A DNA stretch of 64,000 nucleotides from an uncultured cyanobacterium (GCA_963719515.1 CAVRCJ010000003.1:608001-672000); one strand, 5' to 3'; shown: positions 45,363 to 55,920, counted from the stretch's first letter. Program-made: numbers and translations. Notes: generated by a model from the sequence alone, not told the origin.

Positions 45363-45431
45363 GGCTGAATGGCTATCAAAGGACGTCGGGCCTCAGTTAG
45401 GATAACCCTAAGAGACCGACATTAAGCTAAC

Positions 45432-45482
45432 CTAAACGACGTCAGAAATCACCTGCCACACCCGCAAAATTTCCGCCACGCT
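45432..45482 (-). repeat. Orphan copy of the last 17 codons of the glucosidase gene at 53884-53934 (left island boundary)
   Basis: Encodes SVAEILRVWQVISDVV* versus SVAEILRVWRAISEGI*; 42/51 nt identical by manual alignment. Confidence 0.85.
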
Positions 45483-45514
45483 GGCCCTCACCCCCGGCCC
45501 CTCTCTCAACGCTG

Positions 45515-45733
45515 ATACCGCTGGCGAATTTCATGTCTTGTTACATCTCGGCTATTTCCTGCCCCGGAGAAGGCCCCCTAAATCCCCCAATTCTGGGGGA
45601 CTTCAGAGAGGTTAGAACTCCTTAAAGTCAATAGCCGCGAATAGTATGGCCACTGCTCCGGTTCCCCCAGAATTGGGGGTTAGGGGGCCTCGAAGGCGTA
45701 CAGCTCGATTACGAAATATTTCGCCAGTGGTAT
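45515..45733. mobile_element. MITE with 14-bp TIRs, inserted in a palindromic repeat and containing an internal inverted repeat
   Basis: ataccgctggcgaa / ttcgccagtggtat TIRs flanked by caacgctg direct repeats; internal IR at 45571-45690. Confidence 0.75.
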
Positions 45734-45941
45734 CAACGCTGGGAGAGGGGAGTCTGATTCCCTCCCCTCGGAATTGAGGGAAGGGCTAGGGATGAGAGCC
45801 TCCCATGGCGCTAAACGGTTACCAGGGGAAACGCCTAGACGAGGTTTATTCGTCAGGGGTCTATAATTTGAGCAGATAAGGATGGCTCGCTAGAGTAATG
45901 AAGAAAGGGCTGGCCTCAGAAGAAGGTAAAACTTAAGGCCT

Positions 45942-46337
45942 ATGGAACCGCTCCCTATGATTCAAATTACCTTCGGACTCAGCAACGCCGACGAGGGCGA
46001 TCGCCTCCGGTTTTCCAAGCAGGTGCTGCCAGAGCTGCGGGACTTGGACGAAGTGCAGCGGGCCGACCGCACCGAGGTGATGGCGGCGGAAGACGGCGTC
46101 AAGGGCTTTGAAACCCTGCTGGGCTTTTTGACGGCGGAGGTGACGCGGGAGAGCCTAACGGAATTCCTCAAATGGATGGGCGATCGCTTTGCGGATAAGA
46201 CCCTGAAGGTGGCGGTTAAAGTAGGGGAGAAGGAAATCGAGCTAGAGGCGACGAGCCGCAAAGAGCTGGATGACCTGGAGCAGCGGGCCACCCGGCTGCT
46301 GGCGGCAATGGATACCGGCAGTTCCGAAGCCTCGTAG
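45942..46337 (+). CDS. EACC1-like small partner of a caspase (effector-associated constant component)
   Basis: 131 aa directly upstream of a caspase gene; L..ELRDLDEV...GVKG...LLG.L...L..FL.W.....K.LKV.V pattern recalled for this family, not confirmed by search. Confidence 0.55.
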   Translation: MEPLPMIQITFGLSNADEGDRLRFSKQVLPELRDLDEVQRADRTEVMAAEDGVKGFETLLGFLTAEVTRESLTEFLKWMGDRFADKTLKVAVKVGEKEIELEATSRKELDDLEQRATRLLAAMDTGSSEAS

Positions 46338-46383
46338 GGTGGGTCCTGACCCACCACCAACCCGTTAGATACCCACCAAATCT

Positions 46384-48498
46384 GTGCCCAGAAAATTAGC
46401 CCTATTGATCGGCGTCAGCGACTATGGCGAGGGATTTGATCCCTTAAGTGCTCCCGTCAAAGACGTTGCCGCCCTGCAGCGGGTGCTGGCAAATCCCGAG
46501 ATGGGTCACTTTGACGAAGTCAAAACCCTGACTAACCCTGGCTTGGTAGAAATGCGGCGGGAAATTGGCACCCTGTTTTCCACCTCCCAAAAAGACGACC
46601 TGGTGCTGCTGTTCTTCTCCGGCCACGGCGTCACCGATGACGACTATCGGCTGTACCTGACCACAAAGGCATCCGCCAAAGATACGTTTAAGTTCGACTC
46701 CTTAGAGGCCAGCTACATCCAAAACTTTTCCGACAGCGCTTGCGCCAAGCGGCAAGTGATTATTTTGGACTGCTGCTACAGCGGCGCGTTTGCCGGGGGG
46801 TGGCAGCCCAAGGGGGCGGAGGTAAAGCTGGAGCTAGAGCGGGAGCTGGGCAAGGAGGGGCGGGTAGTGTTGACGTCGTCCTCTTCGACGCAGGTGTCGT
46901 TTCAGCAGGAGGATGGGGAGCTATCGCTGTATACCCAGTATTTGGTGGAGGGAATTGAGACGGGGGCGGCGGATAAGGACAAGGATGGGGCGATTCGGGT
47001 GCGGGAGCTGCACGAGTACGCGAAGCGGAAGGTGCAGGAGGTGAAGCCGAAGCTGAAGCCGGACATTATTGTGGCGGATGATGAGGGCTATGATATTGTG
47101 CTGAGCCGGGTGAAGCTGGATGCAGCGCTGCGATTTCGGCGGGAGGTGGAGAAGCGGGTTGACCATGAGCGTGGGGAGATTTTAGATATTGACCAGGAGA
47201 CGCTGCAGGTGAAGGCGCAGCGTCTAAATTTGCCCGCTGAGAAGGTCAAGGAAATTATCGACAGCGTACTGGAACCATCGCGGCGCAGGTTGCGGAATTT
47301 GGAGCGGTATCGGCAGAAGTACGAAGAGTATGCCGAGCGGGGCTATCCGTTGAGCGAGCGGGTAATGGAGAGCCTGCGGGACTGGCAGCAGGAGGTGCTG
47401 GGGCTAGAGGACAACGATGTTGCAGGGATTCAGCGGCAAGCTCACCAGCGATATGCGCGAAGTGAACAGGTTAAGGAAGAAGTTGATAATTCCAATTTCC
47501 TCACTTCTCTGACAGCAGATGAGGCAGCGGGAAGACGGCCCACGGCTCCGCCTCAAGTTGATACGGCTTACAAATTTGAGCAGATACTACCTGAACCAAA
47601 TACAACCGACAAACAAGGCAGGCTTGAACAACCGCTGACCACTTTCAGCTTTCAGACCGCTAGAATCACAGGCTGTCAGAAGCAGGGAGGGTTCCTTGGC
47701 GTAGGCGGTGAAGTTGTCTGCGATATTAGACGCGAAACGAAGACAGCACAGGGATTTGTTGAGGGCTTGGGCAACGGCGCGACGCTGGAACTAGTGCAGA
47801 TTCCGGCTGGGCGATTTGTAATGGGCTCGCCAGCAAAAGAGGCCACCTACGGTGATGAGAAGCCTCAGCACGCGGTTAGAGTGCCGCCATTTCTCATAGG
47901 CAAGTTCGTGGTGACTCAGGCTCAATGTGAGGCTGTGATGGGTACTAATCCAGCAGTCCAATACAATGCTGACCATTTTGTAGCGCCTGATAAACCCGTT
48001 GTGGGCGTGAGCTGGAATGACGCGATCGCTTTTTGCGAAAAGCTGTCTCAGCAGACTGGTCGAATGTATCGATTGCCGAGTGAGGCGCAATGGGAGTATG
48101 CCTGCCGGGCTGGAACCGAGACGCCGTTCTACTTTGGAGAGACGCTGACAGTGGCGATCGCAAACTATGACGCTAGCCAAACTTACGGCAGCGGACCAAA
48201 AGGTGAATATCTAAAAAAGACAAAGGCGGTAGGATCTTTCCCTACCAACGCCTTTGGCCTGTTTGATATGCATGGCAATGTCTGGGAATGGTGCCAAGAC
48301 CACTGGCATGGAAACTATAGGGGCGCACCCGCTGATGGAAGCGCCTGGATCGCAGGTGGAGACAGCGATAAACGTGTTCTACGCGGCGGTTCCTGGTTCA
48401 ATCTTCCGATCTTTTGCCGTTCGGCGAATCGGAACAGGAACGCCCCCGGCTACCTCGGCTACGGGATGGGTTTCCGGGTGTGTGTGGCGTCGGCGTGA
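46384..48498 (+). CDS. Caspase (peptidase C14)::helical linker::FGE-sulfatase/C-type lectin-fold protein; DGR target
   Basis: ALLIGVSDY, FFSGHG (His) and ILDCCYSG (Cys) dyad; C-terminal F.MGS, RLPSEAQWEYACRAG, NAFGLFDMHGNVWEWC, RGGSW, GFRV. Confidence 0.92.
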   Translation: MPRKLALLIGVSDYGEGFDPLSAPVKDVAALQRVLANPEMGHFDEVKTLTNPGLVEMRREIGTLFSTSQKDDLVLLFFSGHGVTDDDYRLYLTTKASAKDTFKFDSLEASYIQNFSDSACAKRQVIILDCCYSGAFAGGWQPKGAEVKLELERELGKEGRVVLTSSSSTQVSFQQEDGELSLYTQYLVEGIETGAADKDKDGAIRVRELHEYAKRKVQEVKPKLKPDIIVADDEGYDIVLSRVKLDAALRFRREVEKRVDHERGEILDIDQETLQVKAQRLNLPAEKVKEIIDSVLEPSRRRLRNLERYRQKYEEYAERGYPLSERVMESLRDWQQEVLGLEDNDVAGIQRQAHQRYARSEQVKEEVDNSNFLTSLTADEAAGRRPTAPPQVDTAYKFEQILPEPNTTDKQGRLEQPLTTFSFQTARITGCQKQGGFLGVGGEVVCDIRRETKTAQGFVEGLGNGATLELVQIPAGRFVMGSPAKEATYGDEKPQHAVRVPPFLIGKFVVTQAQCEAVMGTNPAVQYNADHFVAPDKPVVGVSWNDAIAFCEKLSQQTGRMYRLPSEAQWEYACRAGTETPFYFGETLTVAIANYDASQTYGSGPKGEYLKKTKAVGSFPTNAFGLFDMHGNVWEWCQDHWHGNYRGAPADGSAWIAGGDSDKRVLRGGSWFNLPIFCRSANRNRNAPGYLGYGMGFRVCVASA
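48382..48498 (+). repeat. DGR variable region (VR)
   Basis: 117-nt gene end, colinear with 48665-48781; 12 of 17 mismatches lie opposite TR adenines. Confidence 0.9.
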
Positions 48499-48664
48499 GG
48501 ACCTTGCCCTTTGCGCCTTTTCCCTCTTGCCCTCTGTTCCGCACTTAGCGCGGCGAAAAATTTTTCCTTTGGTACTACCTGACCGCGTTTGTAACGAACG
48601 AAGCAACATTAGCCCCCTGCCACCGATGGGCATGGTATATCCCTATGTGGGGCAGGCATTAAAA

Positions 48665-48781
48665 CGCGGCGGTTCCTGGTACAACCATCCGATCAATTGC
48701 CGTTCGGCGAATCGGAACAGGAACACCCCCGGCAACATCAACAACAATGTGGGGTTCCGGGTGTGTGCGGCGTCGGCGTGA
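48665..48781 (+). ncRNA. DGR template repeat (TR)
   Basis: Intergenic copy of VR rich in AAC/AAT codons (tac aac cat ccg atc aat ... aac atc aac aac aat). Confidence 0.88.
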
Positions 48782-49017
48782 GCACTCCCAACGGCCAGAA
48801 TCGGTAGAAGGGATTCTATCGAGCGTGTGACTGGGAGTCCAGACCTGCTCCGGCGAGGGCAGAAATGCTTTCCGAAAATAAAACAGGGCCAGGTCATTGG
48901 TAGGGAAACCGAAGATTATCTGGCCCCCCAGCTAGACAGACCCTAGATCCCTGGAATCTGGTAAGGCTTCGCAAAGCGTCATCCTTGGCCGCTCAGGTAT
49001 CACCGTTGCCCCGTGAG

Positions 49018-49204
49018 ATGTTACCACCGACAGTTGAAGTCTCGCCGCCGACAGATAAACTCTTTCGGGCGAAACGACGGTTAGCGGCGTAGAGGCAATC
49101 GCTGCCTAGCCGACGACGAGCGCCTGGCACAGATGCAGCAAGAGAAGGAGGTGCTGTTGGCGAAACTCCGCTCCCTCGGCATCAACCCAGAAGAGCTGCA
49201 ATAG
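49018..49204 (+). pseudogene. Probable remnant of a Uma2-family endonuclease gene (C-terminal tail)
   Basis: GNRCLADDERLAQMQQEKEVLLAKLRSLGINPEELQ* resembles cyanobacterial Uma2 tails; no in-frame body. Confidence 0.5.
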
Positions 49205-49232
49205 CCTGCCCACCAGCGATCGCCCAAACCTT

Positions 49233-49583
49233 TTACCGGATAGGTCGCTGCTGCACCAGGTAGCTGAGCACCTGACCGTGGGCCGGGGTAATATGGATGC
49301 CGCGATCGCCAATGGTAATCATCGGAGTCCAGTAGTGGCGCTCCACGTAATCCAGCAGGTGCAGGCGGGCTATAGCGTCCTGCACGCCGACCGGGGAGCC
49401 AATCAAGAGGTGCCGTAAGTGCTCGCATCCTGGCGCGGGGGATGGTTCTACCAACGTGGGGATATGAGGATCGGCTTCCATAGGCGAATCTAGCCGTGCG
49501 GCGCGGTCTGCCGCGAGCTGTTGGCGTACGGCGAGCTGGGCAGCCTCTTGAACCAAGGGCAGCCGAGGATATTGGATTGTCAT
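49233..49583 (-). CDS. Conserved cyanobacterial hypothetical protein
   Basis: EHLRHLLIGSP.GV..AI..LH.L.Y.E...W motif; start assigned to MTIQYPRL. Confidence 0.65.
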   Translation of the reverse strand: MTIQYPRLPLVQEAAQLAVRQQLAADRAARLDSPMEADPHIPTLVEPSPAPGCEHLRHLLIGSPVGVQDAIARLHLLDYVERHYWTPMITIGDRGIHITPAHGQVLSYLVQQRPIR

Positions 49584-49886
49584 GAGGGACTCCATTTGTG
49601 TTGTTTTGGAGTCCCCCAAAGAATCTGGACATTCCAGACGTGATAAGGGCTCGGTATGACTCAGGTACAATCGCACAAGGTCATCCAAACAGCTTGCTCT
49701 GTTCTGGTGGCTCAGGGGCTGCATGTTGTTCGTAGCAACATGCGGCTCCGCCAGACCGACTCTTTGGGAGACTAGAACCATGAGGACCACGGCTCATAGC
49801 TCACTAAGGTAGATCATTTATGCGCTGATGGCAAGGGGCACGTAGCGTTTTTAGCGAGGGGGCTGGCTGGCGAGGGCGGCGGGATA

Positions 49887-50180
49887 AGCGATCGCCATTC
49901 TCCAACGAGTGCTAATTACTCTCGAACAAGCGATCGCCACTCTCCAGTGAGTCATTGCCACTCTCGCACGGATGATCATCACTCTCCCACGAGCGATCGC
50001 TAGTCTCCAACGAGTGGGCATTACTCTCGCAGGAGCGATCGCCACTCTCTGCCAAGCGATTGCCACGTTCCGACGAGTCATTATGGCTCTCGCACGAGTA
50101 ATCGCCACACTTCCACGAGCAATGGCCACGCTCTGACGAGTGATCAGGACTCTCACACGAGCGATCGCCAGTCTCCTACA
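49887..50180. repeat. Degenerate 21-bp tandem array, 14 units, built around HIP1
   Basis: Consensus near agcgatcgccactctcgcacg with strict 21-nt period and no spacers. Confidence 0.88.
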
Positions 50181-50190
50181 GGTAACAGCT

Positions 50191-51879
50191 TCAATCTCCC
50201 CAAACTTGAATATGGTAGCGGTACCCCTGCTCCGTCAAGAATAGCTGCCGGTGCTGAGCAAACTCCTCCTCGCAGGTGCGCGAAGACACCAGCGTATAAA
50301 ACTGAGCGCTGCGCCCGTCCCCCTTAGGCCTTAGCACCCGCCCCAGCCGCTGCGCCTCCTCCTGGCGGGAGCCATACTTCCCTGACACCTGAATCAGCAC
50401 GTCCGCATCGGGCAAATCTAAAGCAAAGTTACCCACCCGCGAGAGAATCAGCCCCGTCTCTTCGCCGCTGCGAAAGGCGGCGTAGAGGCGATCGCGCTCT
50501 TTTTGGCTGGTCTTGCCGGTGATCATGGAGAAGTCGACCCGCTCAGCGATCGCCTTCAATTGATCCAGGTACTCCCCAATAATCAGCACCCGTCGCCCTG
50601 CTTCCCGCTCTAGCAGCGCCGCCACCACGTCCACCTTGAGGGGATTTTCGGCGGCGATGCGAAACTGGTAGCGGCGGGAGGCCGTGGCGTAGTCCATCTG
50701 CCGCGCCTCGGTTTGCGGCACCCGGATTTCGGTGCATTCCGCCGCCGCAATAAAGCCTTGGCCCTCCAGCTCTCGCCAGGGTACGTCGTAGCGCTTGGGG
50801 CCAATGAGGGTGAACACATCGCCCTCGCGGCCGTCCTCGCGAATCAGAGTGGCCGTTAGTCCTAAGCGGCGGCGGGCCTGCAGTTGAGCGGTGATGCGGA
50901 ATACGGGGGCGGGCAGCAGATGCACCTCGTCGTAGATGATTAGGCCCCAGCTTTGCTCATCGAACAGCCCCAGGTGCAAGAAATCCTCATCTTGACTGGC
51001 CCGGTAGGTGAGGATTTGGTAGGTGGCAAGGGTAACGGGGCCGGTGGCCTTTTGCTGGCCGCTGTACTCCGCTAGATGGTCTGCCGTGAGGCTGGTCTTG
51101 TCCAACAGCTCCCGCTGCCACTGGCGCACCGAGGTGAGGCTGCTGGTGAGGATCAGGGTCTTTTGCTGCACCGCCGCCATCGCCGCCATGCCTACCATGG
51201 TCTTACCCGCCCCGCAGGGCAGCACAATCACGCCGCTGCCGCCTTTGGCCTGCCCCGACTGGTAAAACAGGTCGGCGGCAGTTTGCTGGTAGGGCCGCAG
51301 GTGAAAGGGCTCGCCCGCGCTGGTAGTAGTAGCCAGCTTCAGCGGTAGGGCATCGCCCTCTAGGTAGCCCGCCAAATCTTCTGCCGGGTAGCCCGCCGTG
51401 AGCAGCGCCTGCTTGAGCAGGCCCCGGTGTCCCAAGGCGACGGCAAAGGTTGTCGGCGAAAGGCGACCAGCCAGCAGCGGCCCCACCTGCTCGTGGCGCA
51501 GTAGCAGTTCGGCCAGGGGCTTGTCGGCCACCTGCAGCAGGAGTTCATCTCCCGAGCCAGCGCCATCACTTGCCTTCAGCGTCGTTAGCCCGTAGCGCTG
51601 CCCCAATGCTTCAAGCTCCTGAGCCACTGATTCGGGCATGGGGTACTTGGCGTGGGTGCTCAGGGCGGTAACCATATCGGCGACGGGCATGCCAGCGGCG
51701 CGGGCGTTCCAAATGCTCAGGGGGCTAAGGCGGTAGGTGTGGATGTGCTCTGGGCTTTTGACCAGCTCGGCAAAGGGAGCGATCGCGGCTTGGGCAGGCT
51801 TGGCCTTGGGGGCGTGGACATCCAGCAGCACGGTGCGATCGCTTTGGATAATTAGGGCGTTGTCGGGGGAGTAGCTCAT
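50191..51879 (-). CDS. XPB/Ssl2-like DNA repair helicase
   Basis: FAELVKSPEHIHTYRLSPLSIWNA, LRPYQ, LPCGAGKT, DEVH, GSRQEEAQRLGR. Confidence 0.93.
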   Translation of the reverse strand: MSYSPDNALIIQSDRTVLLDVHAPKAKPAQAAIAPFAELVKSPEHIHTYRLSPLSIWNARAAGMPVADMVTALSTHAKYPMPESVAQELEALGQRYGLTTLKASDGAGSGDELLLQVADKPLAELLLRHEQVGPLLAGRLSPTTFAVALGHRGLLKQALLTAGYPAEDLAGYLEGDALPLKLATTTSAGEPFHLRPYQQTAADLFYQSGQAKGGSGVIVLPCGAGKTMVGMAAMAAVQQKTLILTSSLTSVRQWQRELLDKTSLTADHLAEYSGQQKATGPVTLATYQILTYRASQDEDFLHLGLFDEQSWGLIIYDEVHLLPAPVFRITAQLQARRRLGLTATLIREDGREGDVFTLIGPKRYDVPWRELEGQGFIAAAECTEIRVPQTEARQMDYATASRRYQFRIAAENPLKVDVVAALLEREAGRRVLIIGEYLDQLKAIAERVDFSMITGKTSQKERDRLYAAFRSGEETGLILSRVGNFALDLPDADVLIQVSGKYGSRQEEAQRLGRVLRPKGDGRSAQFYTLVSSRTCEEEFAQHRQLFLTEQGYRYHIQVWGD

Positions 51880-51905
51880 AGGTTTTGTTTTTAGGCGTTG
51901 GGGCC

Positions 51906-53777
51906 TTAGCTACTCGCCATCGGTAGGCTGTACCCCAGCTTCCGCAGGCCGTTACGAAAGCGGGTTTCTTGGTCTAAGGGCACCACCAAATGGCGATCGC
52001 CCGCCAGCTGGCAATACTTTTTGGTGCGGGAATCGTGGGCAATTAGCGCGGCTAGGCTGGCGTCGGCGCATTCAATCAGGCGGGCTACCCCCTGGGCCTG
52101 CAGGCTCTCCGTGCGGCTGCGGCAGTCTTCGAAGAACTGCGCCACGGTTTTGGGCAAAGCTTCGGCGCTGGCCTGGGTGAGAAAGTCGTAGAACTCTTGG
52201 AGGGAGTGACCCGCTTCAGCGGCCTTAAGGATGGTTTCTCGGTCCAGCTTCCAGACGGCGTCAGAGGTCTGCTGGGTGAAGGTGTTCATCATTAGGGTTT
52301 CGGCGGGGGGGAGAGGGGCTCCCGCCATGACGATGTCGAGGTTGGGCAACACCCGCAGCGTGCTCTCGGTGGTGATAGGGGCCGGGGTATAGGCATCGGT
52401 GAGGCCGAGGCAAAAGTCTCCTAGGGGCGTGAGCCGCACCGCAACCAGGCCATCGTAGCGGCTGAGAAACGAGAGATCGTCGGTGCCCCAGAAGCTGTCA
52501 TAGCTGCCGCGGGGGGCCGCGTAGGGGGTGATGTAGCCCACGTCCAGCAGCCCTAAGGTAGCTGCGTATTCAAACAAAAAGCAGCGCATGTAGCTGTCCT
52601 GGAGAATGCCCCAAGACGCGCCATATTCATTGAGATAGCCGTAGCCCGCTTCGCTGATATAGAGACTTTCGGGGTAGCGGCTGACCTCAAACAGTTGATT
52701 GCTGGCAATCATGTAGCGCTTTAGGTGGTCAAACGTGACCCACTCCCCTGCAGGGCACAGCTGCAGGGCGTCAGTAATCGCAGCGCGCCGTCCGCTGACG
52801 GCAGTGAGGCTGCGCTTGGCTTTGCCGGTTTGCCCTTTAATGGCGTCGATGCGCCGCAGTTCGTCGAGCAGGGTGGTTTTCAGCCACTTTTTCCAAATGG
52901 CCTTGAGGGTTTTGTGGGGAGGCGCGCCCATGGCCTTTTGCCCTGCCTTGGTCAGCTGCAGCTTTTTGCCGTCTAAGCTGGCCAATCCACCCGCCTGCAC
53001 CAGCATCACCCAGGCAAAGGGCTTGATGACGCCGATGGGATCGTGGTAATCGTCGGCGGGTTCGTCGTCCTCGGTGTAGTAGTCGCCGCCCTGCAGCAAA
53101 GGGGCGATCGCCTTCAGGGTGGCCTTGCTGGGCATGTAGGTTTTGTCACTGACGCTCACCTTGCCCAGGTGAATCAGCCGCAGCACCGCGAGCAAGTTCT
53201 GCTGGGCGGCTTGTTCCCTAAGGGCGATGGCGATGGGCACCGCTGCTACCGTCTTGATGGACTTACGCTGCTCGTAGTCAAAGTGACGGTGCTGTACCTC
53301 AAACACCTCCGGCAGCGTTTCACTGCTGTTCAGGGTGAGCAGCGGGGGCTGCGGCACAAATGCCTTGAGCTTTTGCTGCAGCGCTTCTGGCATCAGGGAG
53401 GCAGAGTCATACCGGCTACCGGGATAGAAAAACAGATCGAGCTTGGCGGCGGGCTGGCTGTAGCGCATAAACGAGCCACGATTCTCCCAGGTCGGTAAGT
53501 CGCCGTATTTGGCCCGAAACTGCTCCGCCTCGAAGCGGCCCTCGGTGTAGTAGATCGCTTCTGCAACGGCCGCCTGCTGCAGTTTGTCTAGATCGTTCCA
53601 CAGCGCCTTTACCCCCGGCCCCAGGAGATACCCTTCTATGGCATAGATGAGGTCGGCTTTTCGAGTCGACTTTCCTTGAATGGGTAAAAGATCAAGCAGC
53701 TTTTTAATATCTTCGACGGTGCGAAAAGATAATCCTGCCTGGATCGTGCTCAGCGATGTCAGCGTGGAGTCTGCCAT
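51906..53777 (-). CDS. XPB-associated protein with C-terminal helicase-associated domain
   Basis: 623 aa directly upstream of XPB; RLTPLG..CLG, LRVLPNLDI, WKLDRETIL.A...G...F..FL. Confidence 0.75.
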   Translation of the reverse strand: MADSTLTSLSTIQAGLSFRTVEDIKKLLDLLPIQGKSTRKADLIYAIEGYLLGPGVKALWNDLDKLQQAAVAEAIYYTEGRFEAEQFRAKYGDLPTWENRGSFMRYSQPAAKLDLFFYPGSRYDSASLMPEALQQKLKAFVPQPPLLTLNSSETLPEVFEVQHRHFDYEQRKSIKTVAAVPIAIALREQAAQQNLLAVLRLIHLGKVSVSDKTYMPSKATLKAIAPLLQGGDYYTEDDEPADDYHDPIGVIKPFAWVMLVQAGGLASLDGKKLQLTKAGQKAMGAPPHKTLKAIWKKWLKTTLLDELRRIDAIKGQTGKAKRSLTAVSGRRAAITDALQLCPAGEWVTFDHLKRYMIASNQLFEVSRYPESLYISEAGYGYLNEYGASWGILQDSYMRCFLFEYAATLGLLDVGYITPYAAPRGSYDSFWGTDDLSFLSRYDGLVAVRLTPLGDFCLGLTDAYTPAPITTESTLRVLPNLDIVMAGAPLPPAETLMMNTFTQQTSDAVWKLDRETILKAAEAGHSLQEFYDFLTQASAEALPKTVAQFFEDCRSRTESLQAQGVARLIECADASLAALIAHDSRTKKYCQLAGDRHLVVPLDQETRFRNGLRKLGYSLPMASS

Positions 53778-53883
53778 AGGGGTTTGGGCGTAGACTGCTT
53801 CAATTAAAAATACGCACTCTCAACGCTGGGAGTCGAGGGTTTTGGCTATCACAGTTATCTTAAAAGACCGACGTTAGATTGGC

Positions 53884-55920
53884 CTAGATGCCCTCAGAAA
53901 TTGCCCGCCAAACCCGCAGAATTTCCGCCACGCTCCAGGCCTGGGCAAAGCAGCCGCGCGGGGCGTGGGGGGCATCGCCATCAAAAATTTCGCTGACGGT
54001 GCCTAGGCCTGCGTCTGCTAGATGGTCTGCAAAGGGCTCTAGGTAGGACAACGCCCGCTCTGCGTCTCGATAAACCTTGAAGTGAGCCTGCACAAAAGGC
54101 CCCATCAGCCATCCCCAGACGGTGCCCTGGTGGTAAGCGCCGTCCCGCCGGTAGCGATCGCCTCCGTAGGTCCCCGCGTAGCCTGGGTGGGTGGTAGAGA
54201 GCGAGCGCAGGCCGTAGGAGGTGAGTAGATGAGCCGCCACGACGTCGACGACGGCCTTTTGCCGGTCTGGGGTAAGTAGGCGATCGCCGGGGAGACCATC
54301 GCCGTAGGGCAGCGCCACGGCAAAAATTTGGTTGGGGCGGAGGGTGCTGTTGCTACCGCCAGGAGCGTCGAGCACGTCAAAGCAGTAGCCACTCGCCTCG
54401 CTCCAAAAGCGCTGAAAGCCCTGGCGGCACCGTTCGGCCAGTCGCTCGTAGTCTTGGGCGGGCTTGCCCAGCCGGCGAGCCAGCTCAATCATCACCCGCA
54501 GCGCGTTATACCACAGGGCATTCACTTCCACGGGCTTCCCAATGCGCGGCGTCACCACCCAGTCGTCTACCTTGGCATCCATCCAGGTGAGCTGCACCCC
54601 TGTCTCTCCGGCGTACAGCAGGCCGTCGCCCGGGTCCACTTGAATGCCGTAGCGCGTACCCCGCTGATGCCAGTCCACCACTTCAGCCAGGGCGGGAAAG
54701 AGTTCTGCCATCAGCGCCGTATCCTGGGTAGCGGCGCAGTAGCTGCGAATCGCCTCGAAGTACCACAGAATGGCGTCCACGGTGTTGTACTCCGGATCTT
54801 GCCCTGAATCAGGGAAGAGGTTGGGCAGCATGCCCTGGCTGAGGTGCTGCCCAAAGGTCTGTAAAATAGGCCGGGCCAACTCCGGTTTGCCCGCCGCCAT
54901 GGTGAGCCCCGGCAGGCTGATCATGGTGTCGCGGCCCCAGTCCCCGAACCAGGGGTAGCCCGCGATGACTGTTTTACCGGGGGGCTTGCCGGAAGGGTTG
55001 TCCGGGCCGCCGCTTGAGGGACGATCGACCACAAATGAGTCGGCGGCCAGCACCAGCGGCTGTAGCCAGACTGGAGAACTCTGCTGAGAGGCCTGCCATC
55101 GGGTAACCAGCGCCTCATCCTGCTGCCTCCGGTCATCTAACAGCGCGGCCCCGTCAGTGGGGGTCTGACCGCGATCGCCCTCGGTCGTGGCTACCAGAGT
55201 CAGATCCTGACCGAGCCTGAGCGAAACATTGACTGTCGCCGCCTGGAGGTGAGCGTCGCGATCGCCCGTCCCCCGGTAATGCTCCACCGCTAGCCCAAAG
55301 TGATGCAGCCACTGCGGGTCAATTTGCGGCTGACCCCGGTTGCTTAGGACGTAAAAGGGCGCTTTATTGGGCGCTTCTACCTGGATGCCGCACCCCAAGG
55401 CGCTCACCGGCCAATCTCCGGGAGAGCTGCCGCCGTGGTGATCGCGGTGGTTGACAATTACCTTCAGGGCAAGGTCGAGCCTGGCTCCCCGCGTCAGGGT
55501 ATAGCGAACGCAGGTGGTGTTCTCACCGCGCACCATCCACACCCGCTTTTGTAGCTGCGCCCCCCCAAGGGCGAAGGTCCAGACGGGCACCGTACCCTCT
55601 AGCTCAAAGTGCTCGATATGTCGGTAGCCTTGGGGCTCAACCAGGCTGCCCCAAGGGTCTCCCTTTCCGGGAGCCCAGGCATTGGTAAACAACGGGTAGG
55701 CTTTGCCGCCATAGGTGGCGGTCTCGTCCAGCTTCGTCACCAGCAGCGATCGACCTAAGGGGGGATTGAGGGCCGCTACGAGCAATCCGTGGTAGGCCCG
55801 CGTCAGATGGCCCGCGACGGTCCCGCAGGCGTAGCCGCCGATGCCGTTGGTCACCAGCCACTCCCTAGCGGCAGCGGCCTCTAGAGTTCCACAGATCTCC
55901 CGGCCAAACTGAATCGTCAT
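53884..55920 (-). CDS. Amylo-alpha-1,6-glucosidase (glycogen debranching enzyme, GH133-like)
   Basis: REWLVTNGIGGYA, AGYPWFGDWGRDT, LTWMDAK, AYHQGTVWGW, QAWSVAE. Confidence 0.92.
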   Translation of the reverse strand: MTIQFGREICGTLEAAAAREWLVTNGIGGYACGTVAGHLTRAYHGLLVAALNPPLGRSLLVTKLDETATYGGKAYPLFTNAWAPGKGDPWGSLVEPQGYRHIEHFELEGTVPVWTFALGGAQLQKRVWMVRGENTTCVRYTLTRGARLDLALKVIVNHRDHHGGSSPGDWPVSALGCGIQVEAPNKAPFYVLSNRGQPQIDPQWLHHFGLAVEHYRGTGDRDAHLQAATVNVSLRLGQDLTLVATTEGDRGQTPTDGAALLDDRRQQDEALVTRWQASQQSSPVWLQPLVLAADSFVVDRPSSGGPDNPSGKPPGKTVIAGYPWFGDWGRDTMISLPGLTMAAGKPELARPILQTFGQHLSQGMLPNLFPDSGQDPEYNTVDAILWYFEAIRSYCAATQDTALMAELFPALAEVVDWHQRGTRYGIQVDPGDGLLYAGETGVQLTWMDAKVDDWVVTPRIGKPVEVNALWYNALRVMIELARRLGKPAQDYERLAERCRQGFQRFWSEASGYCFDVLDAPGGSNSTLRPNQIFAVALPYGDGLPGDRLLTPDRQKAVVDVVAAHLLTSYGLRSLSTTHPGYAGTYGGDRYRRDGAYHQGTVWGWLMGPFVQAHFKVYRDAERALSYLEPFADHLADAGLGTVSEIFDGDAPHAPRGCFAQAWSVAEILRVWRAISEGI

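Follow-up and report, generated by a model that had tools for sequence, protein, structure and literature searches.

A divergent cyanobacterial EACC1-caspase gene pair with a lectin-fold domain that was hypermutated in the past and is probably now frozen

The EACC1 two-gene conflict system is defined in passages of PMC7159879 (families PF19953 and NF047832), and a passage of PMC8195603 describes an analogous EACC2 system. In the sections of a preprint that deal with EACC1-Avs12 of Ktedonobacter racemifer (Evans et al., bioRxiv 10.1101/2025.11.14.688446), uncut EACC1 is described as an autoinhibited monomer that the caspase cuts into pieces of 5.7 and 7.1 kDa; the C-terminal piece alone is toxic, and liposomes leak with cleaved EACC1 only. 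The same sections already list EACC1 proteases fused to domains related to diversity-generating retroelements (DGRs). Passages of PMC7517822 report orthocaspase-C-type lectin (CLec) proteins as DGR targets, among them all3226 of Nostoc PCC 7120, together with remnant pairs of template repeat (TR) and variable repeat (VR) without a reverse transcriptase (RT), and passages of PMC10907252 report degenerate loci lacking RT, some of them diversified in trans. Here we analyze a locus from an uncultured cyanobacterium (GCA_963719515.1), within a stretch of 64,000 nucleotides (CAVRCJ010000003.1:608001-672000; hereafter the window). It encodes a small EACC1-type protein followed by a caspase fused to a lectin-fold domain whose tip bears the marks of a DGR. 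We consider it likely, though well short of certain, that this is a cyanobacterial EACC1-caspase pair whose lectin tip was hypermutated by a DGR and then frozen, and in which a ligand would trigger cutting of the small protein into a lethal pore-former.

The pair consists of a 131-aa open reading frame (ORF; 45942-46337, +) and, after a gap of 46 bp, a 704-aa ORF that begins with GTG (46384-48498, +). Database gene calls for the small protein begin at Met6. The evidence for its identity comes from its relatives: PF19953, the Pfam EACC1 family, is carried by 2 of 26 close homologues (68-70% identical), by 9 of the 22 sequences aligned initially (E ≤ 1, best 1.4e-5), and by 31 of 111 members of a wider one (E ≤ 0.01, best 4.3e-6), in which one member matches any other family. 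The wider alignment comprised the query, 13 close homologues, and 97 of 150 listed representatives, with fragments, long fusions, and some other entries omitted by length. Atlas feature scores of 0.92 and 0.91 were obtained to clusters with 29% and 37% EACC1, which ranked behind one cyanobacterial cluster without a Pfam family. NCBIfam has no EACC1-type model that matches the small protein or any of the 21 homologues aligned with it, Foldseek with the small-protein model returned nothing at E ≤ 0.001, the best VIA-align hits (Z up to 6.9) were generic ferredoxin-like folds with nothing specific, and PADLOC gave no model for the protein. Because relatives match PF19953 and the linkage to caspases is conserved (see below), we read the small protein, on sequence grounds, as a divergent cyanobacterial EACC1. 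This clade is common, being found in 68 of 201 genomes of the class, yet it is mostly missed by the Pfam model, as the count of 31 in 111 indicates. Two relatives (L131:6927-7907 and L134:6956-7972) have their EACC1-like domains fused to 200 extra residues, giving proteins of about 330 aa.

We surveyed the neighborhood of the small gene in the top 60 of 112 listed matches, leaving aside the copies in the host's own genome, two other loci, two located at the start of a contig, and one more entry. The small gene is followed directly by a caspase in 50 of these 60 loci (49 on the same strand within 600 nt, one at about 650 nt), and two loci stop at contig ends. A separate set of 28 loci from our collection, which may overlap with the 60, contains 24 with a caspase and 4 that end at contig ends. 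The C termini of 44 caspases of at least 300 aa carry FGE-sulfatase (22 proteins), GUN4 (6), periplasmic-binding (2), TPR (1), or RDD (1) domains, or have no further Pfam match (12). Caspase linkage is thus conserved, and the C-terminal domains are highly variable, with at least five types.

The caspase itself matches Peptidase_C14 over residues 3-219 (E = 1.4e-21) and scores 157.2 bits against NF047832 (“caspase_w_EACC1”; cutoff, 140), while PADLOC gives the large protein a generic caspase match only. The SGHG motif spans residues 79-82 and the DCC motif residues 129-131. Across 28 aligned caspases, H81, D129, and C131 are invariant, D27 is present in 27, and C130 varies; the catalytic cysteine is C131, the second of the DCC motif, because it is invariant and its neighbor is not. 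The catalytic dyad is therefore His81/Cys131, which is intact here. The conserved aspartates D27 and D129 presumably contribute to the specificity pocket. An initial annotation of this DNA had described a 131-aa gene 46 bp before a caspase with SGHG and DCC motifs, a helical linker, and a DGR-targeted domain; coordinates, Pfam, AlphaFold2, and the VR/TR comparison all agree with it. Its EACC1 label is borne out by the NF047832 score and by the 31 matching relatives, and the linkage to caspases on which it depended holds in 50 of 60 loci.

In the AlphaFold2 model of the large protein (27-row alignment; mean predicted local distance difference test [pLDDT] score, 82), the caspase (residues 1-242) is followed by helices (247-380), a disordered segment (379-414), and a beta-rich domain (419-704). 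The beta-rich domain matches FGE-sulfatase over residues 469-699 (E = 3.5e-55); we take its C-type lectin label from passages of PMC7517822 and PMC10907252 and presume it to be the sensor. No transmembrane stretch was detected in the 704-aa protein (best hydropathy, 0.95). Near-identical copies of the gene pair occur in other samples; a search of sequencing runs listed none of RNA that carries the locus, which bears in neither direction on its expression. L082, a 1,564-bp contig filed under a Nonlabens metagenome-assembled genome, is 98% identical to the locus over 1,459 bp; it is probably misbinned, with transfer as the less likely alternative. This contig remains 98% identical over 45696-47154 and diverges just after the caspase, which places a module swap point near 47154, and contig 17 of run X5 departs from the window at 47153 and rejoins it at 47895, across the linker. 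Close strains thus exchange C-terminal modules.

The 3′ end of the lectin-fold domain recurs as a TR 283 bp downstream. VR and TR are mismatched at 12 of 25 TR adenines compared with 5 of 92 other positions (Fisher P = 2.3e-6), an adenine bias far beyond chance that marks the VR as genuine. In the TR, 24 adenines are spread over 15 sense codons, for a coding capacity of about 1e14 protein variants. The adenine share of the mismatches (12 of 17, or 71%) falls below the rule of >80% for DGRs given in a passage of PMC7517822, which fits aging of the VR/TR pair. The spacer (Sp) RNA behind the TR is matched by a model built without the window copy (nhmmer, E = 1.8e-64), and Sp matches occur in 44 of 401 genomes of the class, this one included. 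No second TR was found in the host assembly, and a paralogous lectin gene on contig C6 was ruled out as a target of the TR, from which it differs at 55 positions, 15 of them adenines. The layout of VR next to TR also occurs in a strain about 90% identical, since a contig from run X7 covers 48414-48721 with 30 differences and 5 gaps. In a comparison of 11 TRs, the enzyme-less cassettes (such as those of the window, L013, and L043) have 21-27 adenines per 117 nt versus 28-35 in RT-linked cassettes, and they share a distinct spacer subtype.

Neither an avd nor an RT gene lies on either side of the TR-Sp, and none was found elsewhere in the host assembly (5.28 Mb, 21 contigs, 100% complete, 1.4% contaminated). 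In this assembly Pfam RVT_1 had no match, tblastn and single-protein searches for RT and Avd found none, and custom RT and Avd profiles gave best E values of 3.1 and 4.7 over 157,678 six-frame pieces. Among four relatives from the same genus, none has a TR-Sp and none a DGR-type RT. The repeats have also drifted: 5 of 92 non-adenine positions differ here, whereas two similar cassettes have no such mismatch at 95 and 96 positions, respectively. At two of the five sites, most of the other TRs (8 of 10 in each case) agree with the VR, and it is therefore probably the TR that mutated after its last copying. Because RT and Avd were not found in the assembly and because TR and VR have drifted apart, we conclude that the sensor, hypermutated in the past, is probably now frozen. 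The annotation's proposal that specificity is rewritten by retrohoming therefore stands for the past, given the adenine-specific VR/TR differences, and is not supported for this genome at present, given the missing enzymes and the five non-adenine mismatches; in calling the sensor hypermutable today, it did not mention the absence of avd and RT at the locus and in the assembly.

Enzyme-less layouts of target, TR, and spacer are common. Among 30 loci with a similar spacer, the TR could be placed in 28, and a VR lies 280-570 nt upstream in 16; 1 of these 16 has an intact avd and RT downstream, 2 have RT fragments, and 13, including the window cassette and two near contig ends (G014 and G168), have neither in their 1.5-kb flanks. 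A full RT is encoded elsewhere in the genome for 8 of the 13 (non-adenine mismatches per 96 nt: 0, 0, 0, 0, 0, 1, 1, and 8), and no RT was found in the genomes of the other 5 (4 in the window cassette, then 4, 0, 0, and 0). Deletion of avd-RT from between VR and TR, the order seen in L054, L058, and L158, was considered as the origin of the layout and is weakened by L195, with avd and RT downstream of the spacer, and by L186 and L196, with RT fragments there; given these three, enzyme loss from either side would fit.

Coupling to a DGR is the exception in the EACC1 family. A local TR, the feature counted here, occurs in 3 of the 60 surveyed loci (L158, L118, and L156). L158:1557-5950 (G128:C1) is complete: an EACC1-like gene and a caspase-lectin target stand in line with avd, RT, TR, and spacer, and its synchronous VR and TR differ at 15 adenines and at no other site. 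L118 lacks enzyme genes at the locus, differs from its TR at 10 adenines and at no other site, and comes from a genome that encodes three RT-Avd sets; L156 is enzyme-less with an in-frame stop in its caspase gene. Further broken relatives are L140, in which the gene is split, and L133, which has an avd stump. In L083:7383-9266, an EACC1-caspase with a frameshifted lectin domain, the mutated 3′ end is joined directly to the spacer RNA, which is what a fusion of VR and TR by recombination would look like. Five related loci (L076, L088, L090, L091, and L092) have an almost invariant lectin tail and no local TR, which suggests a fixed sensor under conservation.

Our proposal for how the pair acts draws on the small-protein model and on the published analogue. 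The AlphaFold2 model (pLDDT, 79) is a soluble alpha/beta fold in which two N-terminal and two C-terminal strands flank an open loop at residues 47-57, and position 54 in this loop is occupied by Lys in 95 of the 111 homologues and by Arg in another 8 (103 of 111 together). A foreign molecule, probably a protein or glycan from a phage or other invader, would bind the lectin-fold tip and thereby bring caspase domains together through the helical linker and activate them. The active caspase would then cut the small protein within the loop, most likely after Lys54, to give predicted fragments of about 5.6 and 8.6 kDa counted from Met6. A cleaved fragment would likely form a lethal membrane pore, killing the infected cell and sparing its kin. 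Calculated N-terminal pieces are 4.8-5.6 kDa for cuts at 46-54, and the loop position matches that of Ktedonobacter EACC1. We favor Lys54 over Asp because it is conserved, because the caspase retains two conserved aspartates, and because nonanimal C14 proteases prefer Arg or Lys (a passage of PMC5756287). By homology, the output of a cut, pore-forming fragment may be the same as in the Ktedonobacter system, and proteolysis of the small partner would agree with the published mechanism of that other EACC1 system.

Structure prediction of the caspase with the small protein lends this pairing weak support. The complex scored 0.35, compared with 0.00 for the best control, with at least 78% contact agreement among runs and a partner pLDDT of at least 70; it gave no interface. 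In the reference sets, 116 of the 157 solved pairs and 2 of the 215 mismatched pairs met the mark for such predictions; those that did so at 0.60 or below were only 18 of the solved pairs and both of the mismatched ones.

Several observations weigh against our reading, and we consider them together with the rival explanations. The small protein itself has no PF19953 match, so that the suggested profile search against EACC1 was negative for the protein and positive through its relatives. Eight of the 60 EACC1-like genes have no caspase behind them, and in the host's own paralogous pair the small gene stands head to head with the caspase. The most hydrophobic 19-mer of the small protein reaches 0.73 on the Kyte-Doolittle scale (median over the 111, 1.03), and 1.6 or more is reached in only 5 of the 111; Gly61, 97% conserved, lies within an apolar stretch that forms no clear transmembrane helix. 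Because the central segment is weakly hydrophobic, pore formation is not assured for the cyanobacterial clade. Asp51 lies in the same open loop as Lys54, some Asp occurs within the loop in 69 of 111 homologues, and the Ktedonobacter cut was put, by a model, at Asp49 and not at a lysine.

The weak hydrophobicity would suit a signaling or stress switch, in which the small protein regulates or senses the caspase, and the C-terminal domain is freed or adjusted by self-cleavage as part of a regulatory pathway. This was the original EACC1 model in the relevant passages of PMC7159879, and it accords with the regulatory-tuning view of cyanobacterial DGR targets in those of PMC7517822. Housekeeping-like partners (GUN4 in 6 and periplasmic-binding domains in 2 of the 44 caspases) and the near-identical VR tails kept in the five related loci without a local TR argue in the same direction. 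However, the one EACC1 that has been tested is cleaved, toxic, and permeabilizes liposomes (Evans et al., in the sections cited above), and here the open loop with its conserved Lys resembles a cut site. The unit also sits in a variable island, at a site where another genome has a gene that we take to encode a different protease. We regard such a switch as unlikely, though the most serious competitor to the lethal pore-former.

The frozen state of the tip is challenged by the cassettes in which synchrony of VR and TR does not follow the presence of RT: G196 has an RT yet 8 non-adenine mismatches, and G138, G014, and G168 have no RT found and 0 mismatches. With 4 exceptions among 13 cassettes, we dropped RT presence as a predictor of synchrony; the relation is loose, and the window cassette is among the drifted ones. 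Because the assembly is in 21 contigs, an RT could also be unassembled, and the sensor would then still be hypermutable, with RT and Avd supplied by an unassembled plasmid, prophage, or subpopulation. The TR leader, TR, and Sp are intact, 8 of the 13 enzyme-less cassettes share a genome with a full DGR RT (7 of these 8 with 0-1 non-adenine mismatches), and activity in trans is reported in a passage of PMC10907252. Against this stand a 100%-complete assembly with no trace of RT or Avd, five non-adenine mismatches of which at least two appear to be TR-side changes, and the absence of TR-Sp and DGR-type RT from all four genus relatives; continued hypermutation is quite improbable. Least credible is a reading of the unit as a whole as decaying and inert, carried along in an island acquired horizontally: the DGR part is drifting and broken relatives exist (L156, in-frame stop; L083, frameshifted lectin; L140, split gene; L133, avd stump), but both ORFs are full length, the dyad is intact, and near-identical copies of the pair are found in other samples.

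We further propose that the cassette came by horizontal transfer as a target-TR-Sp module, which would work only where another DGR supplies RT and Avd. A more general scheme, which we put forward tentatively and rate as doubtful, is that in cyanobacteria portable, enzyme-less target-TR-spacer cassettes attach a rewritable lectin sensor to a caspase-EACC1 pore-death switch: RT and Avd of a resident DGR would retarget it somatically, and otherwise, as in this host, the last selected specificity would stay frozen until an enzyme-bearing element arrives. Such a scheme would amount to an adaptive, antibody-like receptor coupled directly to gasdermin-like lysis, whose mutation depends on enzymes supplied in trans. 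For the ligands of DGR-diversified lectin domains in bacteria, the EACC1-caspase fusion would offer a two-gene life-or-death readout, since binding of a ligand by the VR should be lethal. The locus described here would serve as a fixed, possibly selected variant; L158, with the same layout, complete and synchronous, is best suited for experiments.

Named homologues point to a cyanobacterial host, as does a density of 1.47 per kb of the GCGATCGC octamer, which we take to be a marker of cyanobacteria. The gene pair lies in an 8.4-kb island (45483-53860) with 74-bp repeats at both borders (Table 1), both of which translate as the final residues of glycogen debranching enzyme. Two relatives from the genus, G003 and G004, have no insert at this site, and their flanking genes adjoin each other; in G001 another insert occupies the site, likewise with the duplicated gene end (L106), and has a gene for a 947-aa protein, presumably TPR-CHAT-like from its repeats and C-terminal motif; and in G002 the flanking genes fall on separate contigs. 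The junction of the debranching enzyme and MGH1-like glucosidase genes is thus an insertion hotspot. The palindromic repeat upstream of the pair is probably a miniature inverted-repeat transposable element (MITE). Elsewhere in the island, 50191-53777 (−) encodes an XPB-type helicase (562 aa) and a Helicase_C_3 partner (623 aa), which are located at another place in G002 and for which PADLOC gave weak PbeA/HmaA helicase matches only. A small multicopy hypothetical gene without a Pfam match (49233-49790, −), also present in the G001 insert, is followed by a 21/42-bp tandem repeat array (49886-50179). A second EACC1-like/caspase-FGE pair in the host genome (L001:5217-8063; G000:C6) is arranged head to head and has no TR.

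Table 1. Features of the EACC1-caspase locus and its island (positions in the window)
Feature	Position	Strand	Basis
Left island boundary	45409..45482	-	Repeat family D9; 74-bp duplicate, 78% identical to 3′ end of glycogen debranching enzyme gene
MITE-like palindromic repeat, multicopy, upstream of gene pair	45484..45816	.	Numerous copies (70-97%) across other contigs of the genome
EACC1-type small protein, cyanobacterial clade, 131 aa (assigned)	45942..46337	+	PF19953 matches of homologues; AlphaFold2 fold; conserved position 54
Caspase (peptidase C14) domain, residues 1-242, EACC1-associated type	46384..47109	+	PF00656, NF047832, invariant dyad
Helical linker (residues 247-380) and disordered tether (379-414)	47122..47625	+	AlphaFold2
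FGE-sulfatase-like/C-type-lectin-fold domain, residues 419-704, DGR target	47638..48498	+	PF03781; AlphaFold2
VR, codons 667-704 and stop codon	48382..48498	+	17 mismatches to TR, 12 at TR adenines
Conserved 5′ leader of template RNA gene	48647..48664	+	Conserved block in alignment of 11 TR-RNA genes
TR, 283 bp downstream of VR	48665..48781	+	117-nt recurrence of VR
Structured Sp RNA of DGR	48782..48935	+	Aligns with Sp of RT-linked DGRs, similar hairpins
Right island boundary	53861..53934	-	True 3′ end of glycogen debranching enzyme gene (53884-55920)

Compared with the EACC1-caspase system in the passages of PMC7159879, the locus shares a constant small 5′ gene followed by a 3′ gene that encodes a constant caspase at the N terminus and a C-terminal domain that varies. 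That system has been described mainly from actinobacteria, whereas ours belongs to a divergent cyanobacterial clade, and where those passages predict a single conserved transmembrane helix with a small-residue patch, the small protein here has a weakly hydrophobic segment. With EACC1-Avs12, as presented in the cited sections of Evans et al., it shares an EACC1 of similar size upstream of a caspase-sensor fusion, and a predicted sheet of N- and C-terminal strands with a cleavable loop near residue 50, an autoinhibited layout. The two differ in the sensor, an Avs NTPase that detects phage tail connectors there and a DGR-mutated lectin fold here, and in the cut, which is at Asp49 there, while conservation here points to Lys54. 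The DGRs in passages of PMC7517822 have in common with this locus the orthocaspase-CLec target, adenine-specific VR/TR differences, and TR-VR homology without a nearby RT; in those genomes RTs lie elsewhere, whereas none was found in the whole assembly here, and the passages concerned do not mention an EACC1 partner. The systems of multicellular bacteria in PMC10907252 likewise combine CLec sensors with protease effectors and include RT-less degenerate loci, but in its relevant passages they are mostly MoxR-vWA ternary or Trypco-linked, and “EACC” has 0 occurrences in its main text. A literature search, with subscription journals mostly outside its coverage, returned no paper devoted to a cyanobacterial EACC1-caspase-CLec DGR. 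The components of this locus and their combination are, nevertheless, already described in print.

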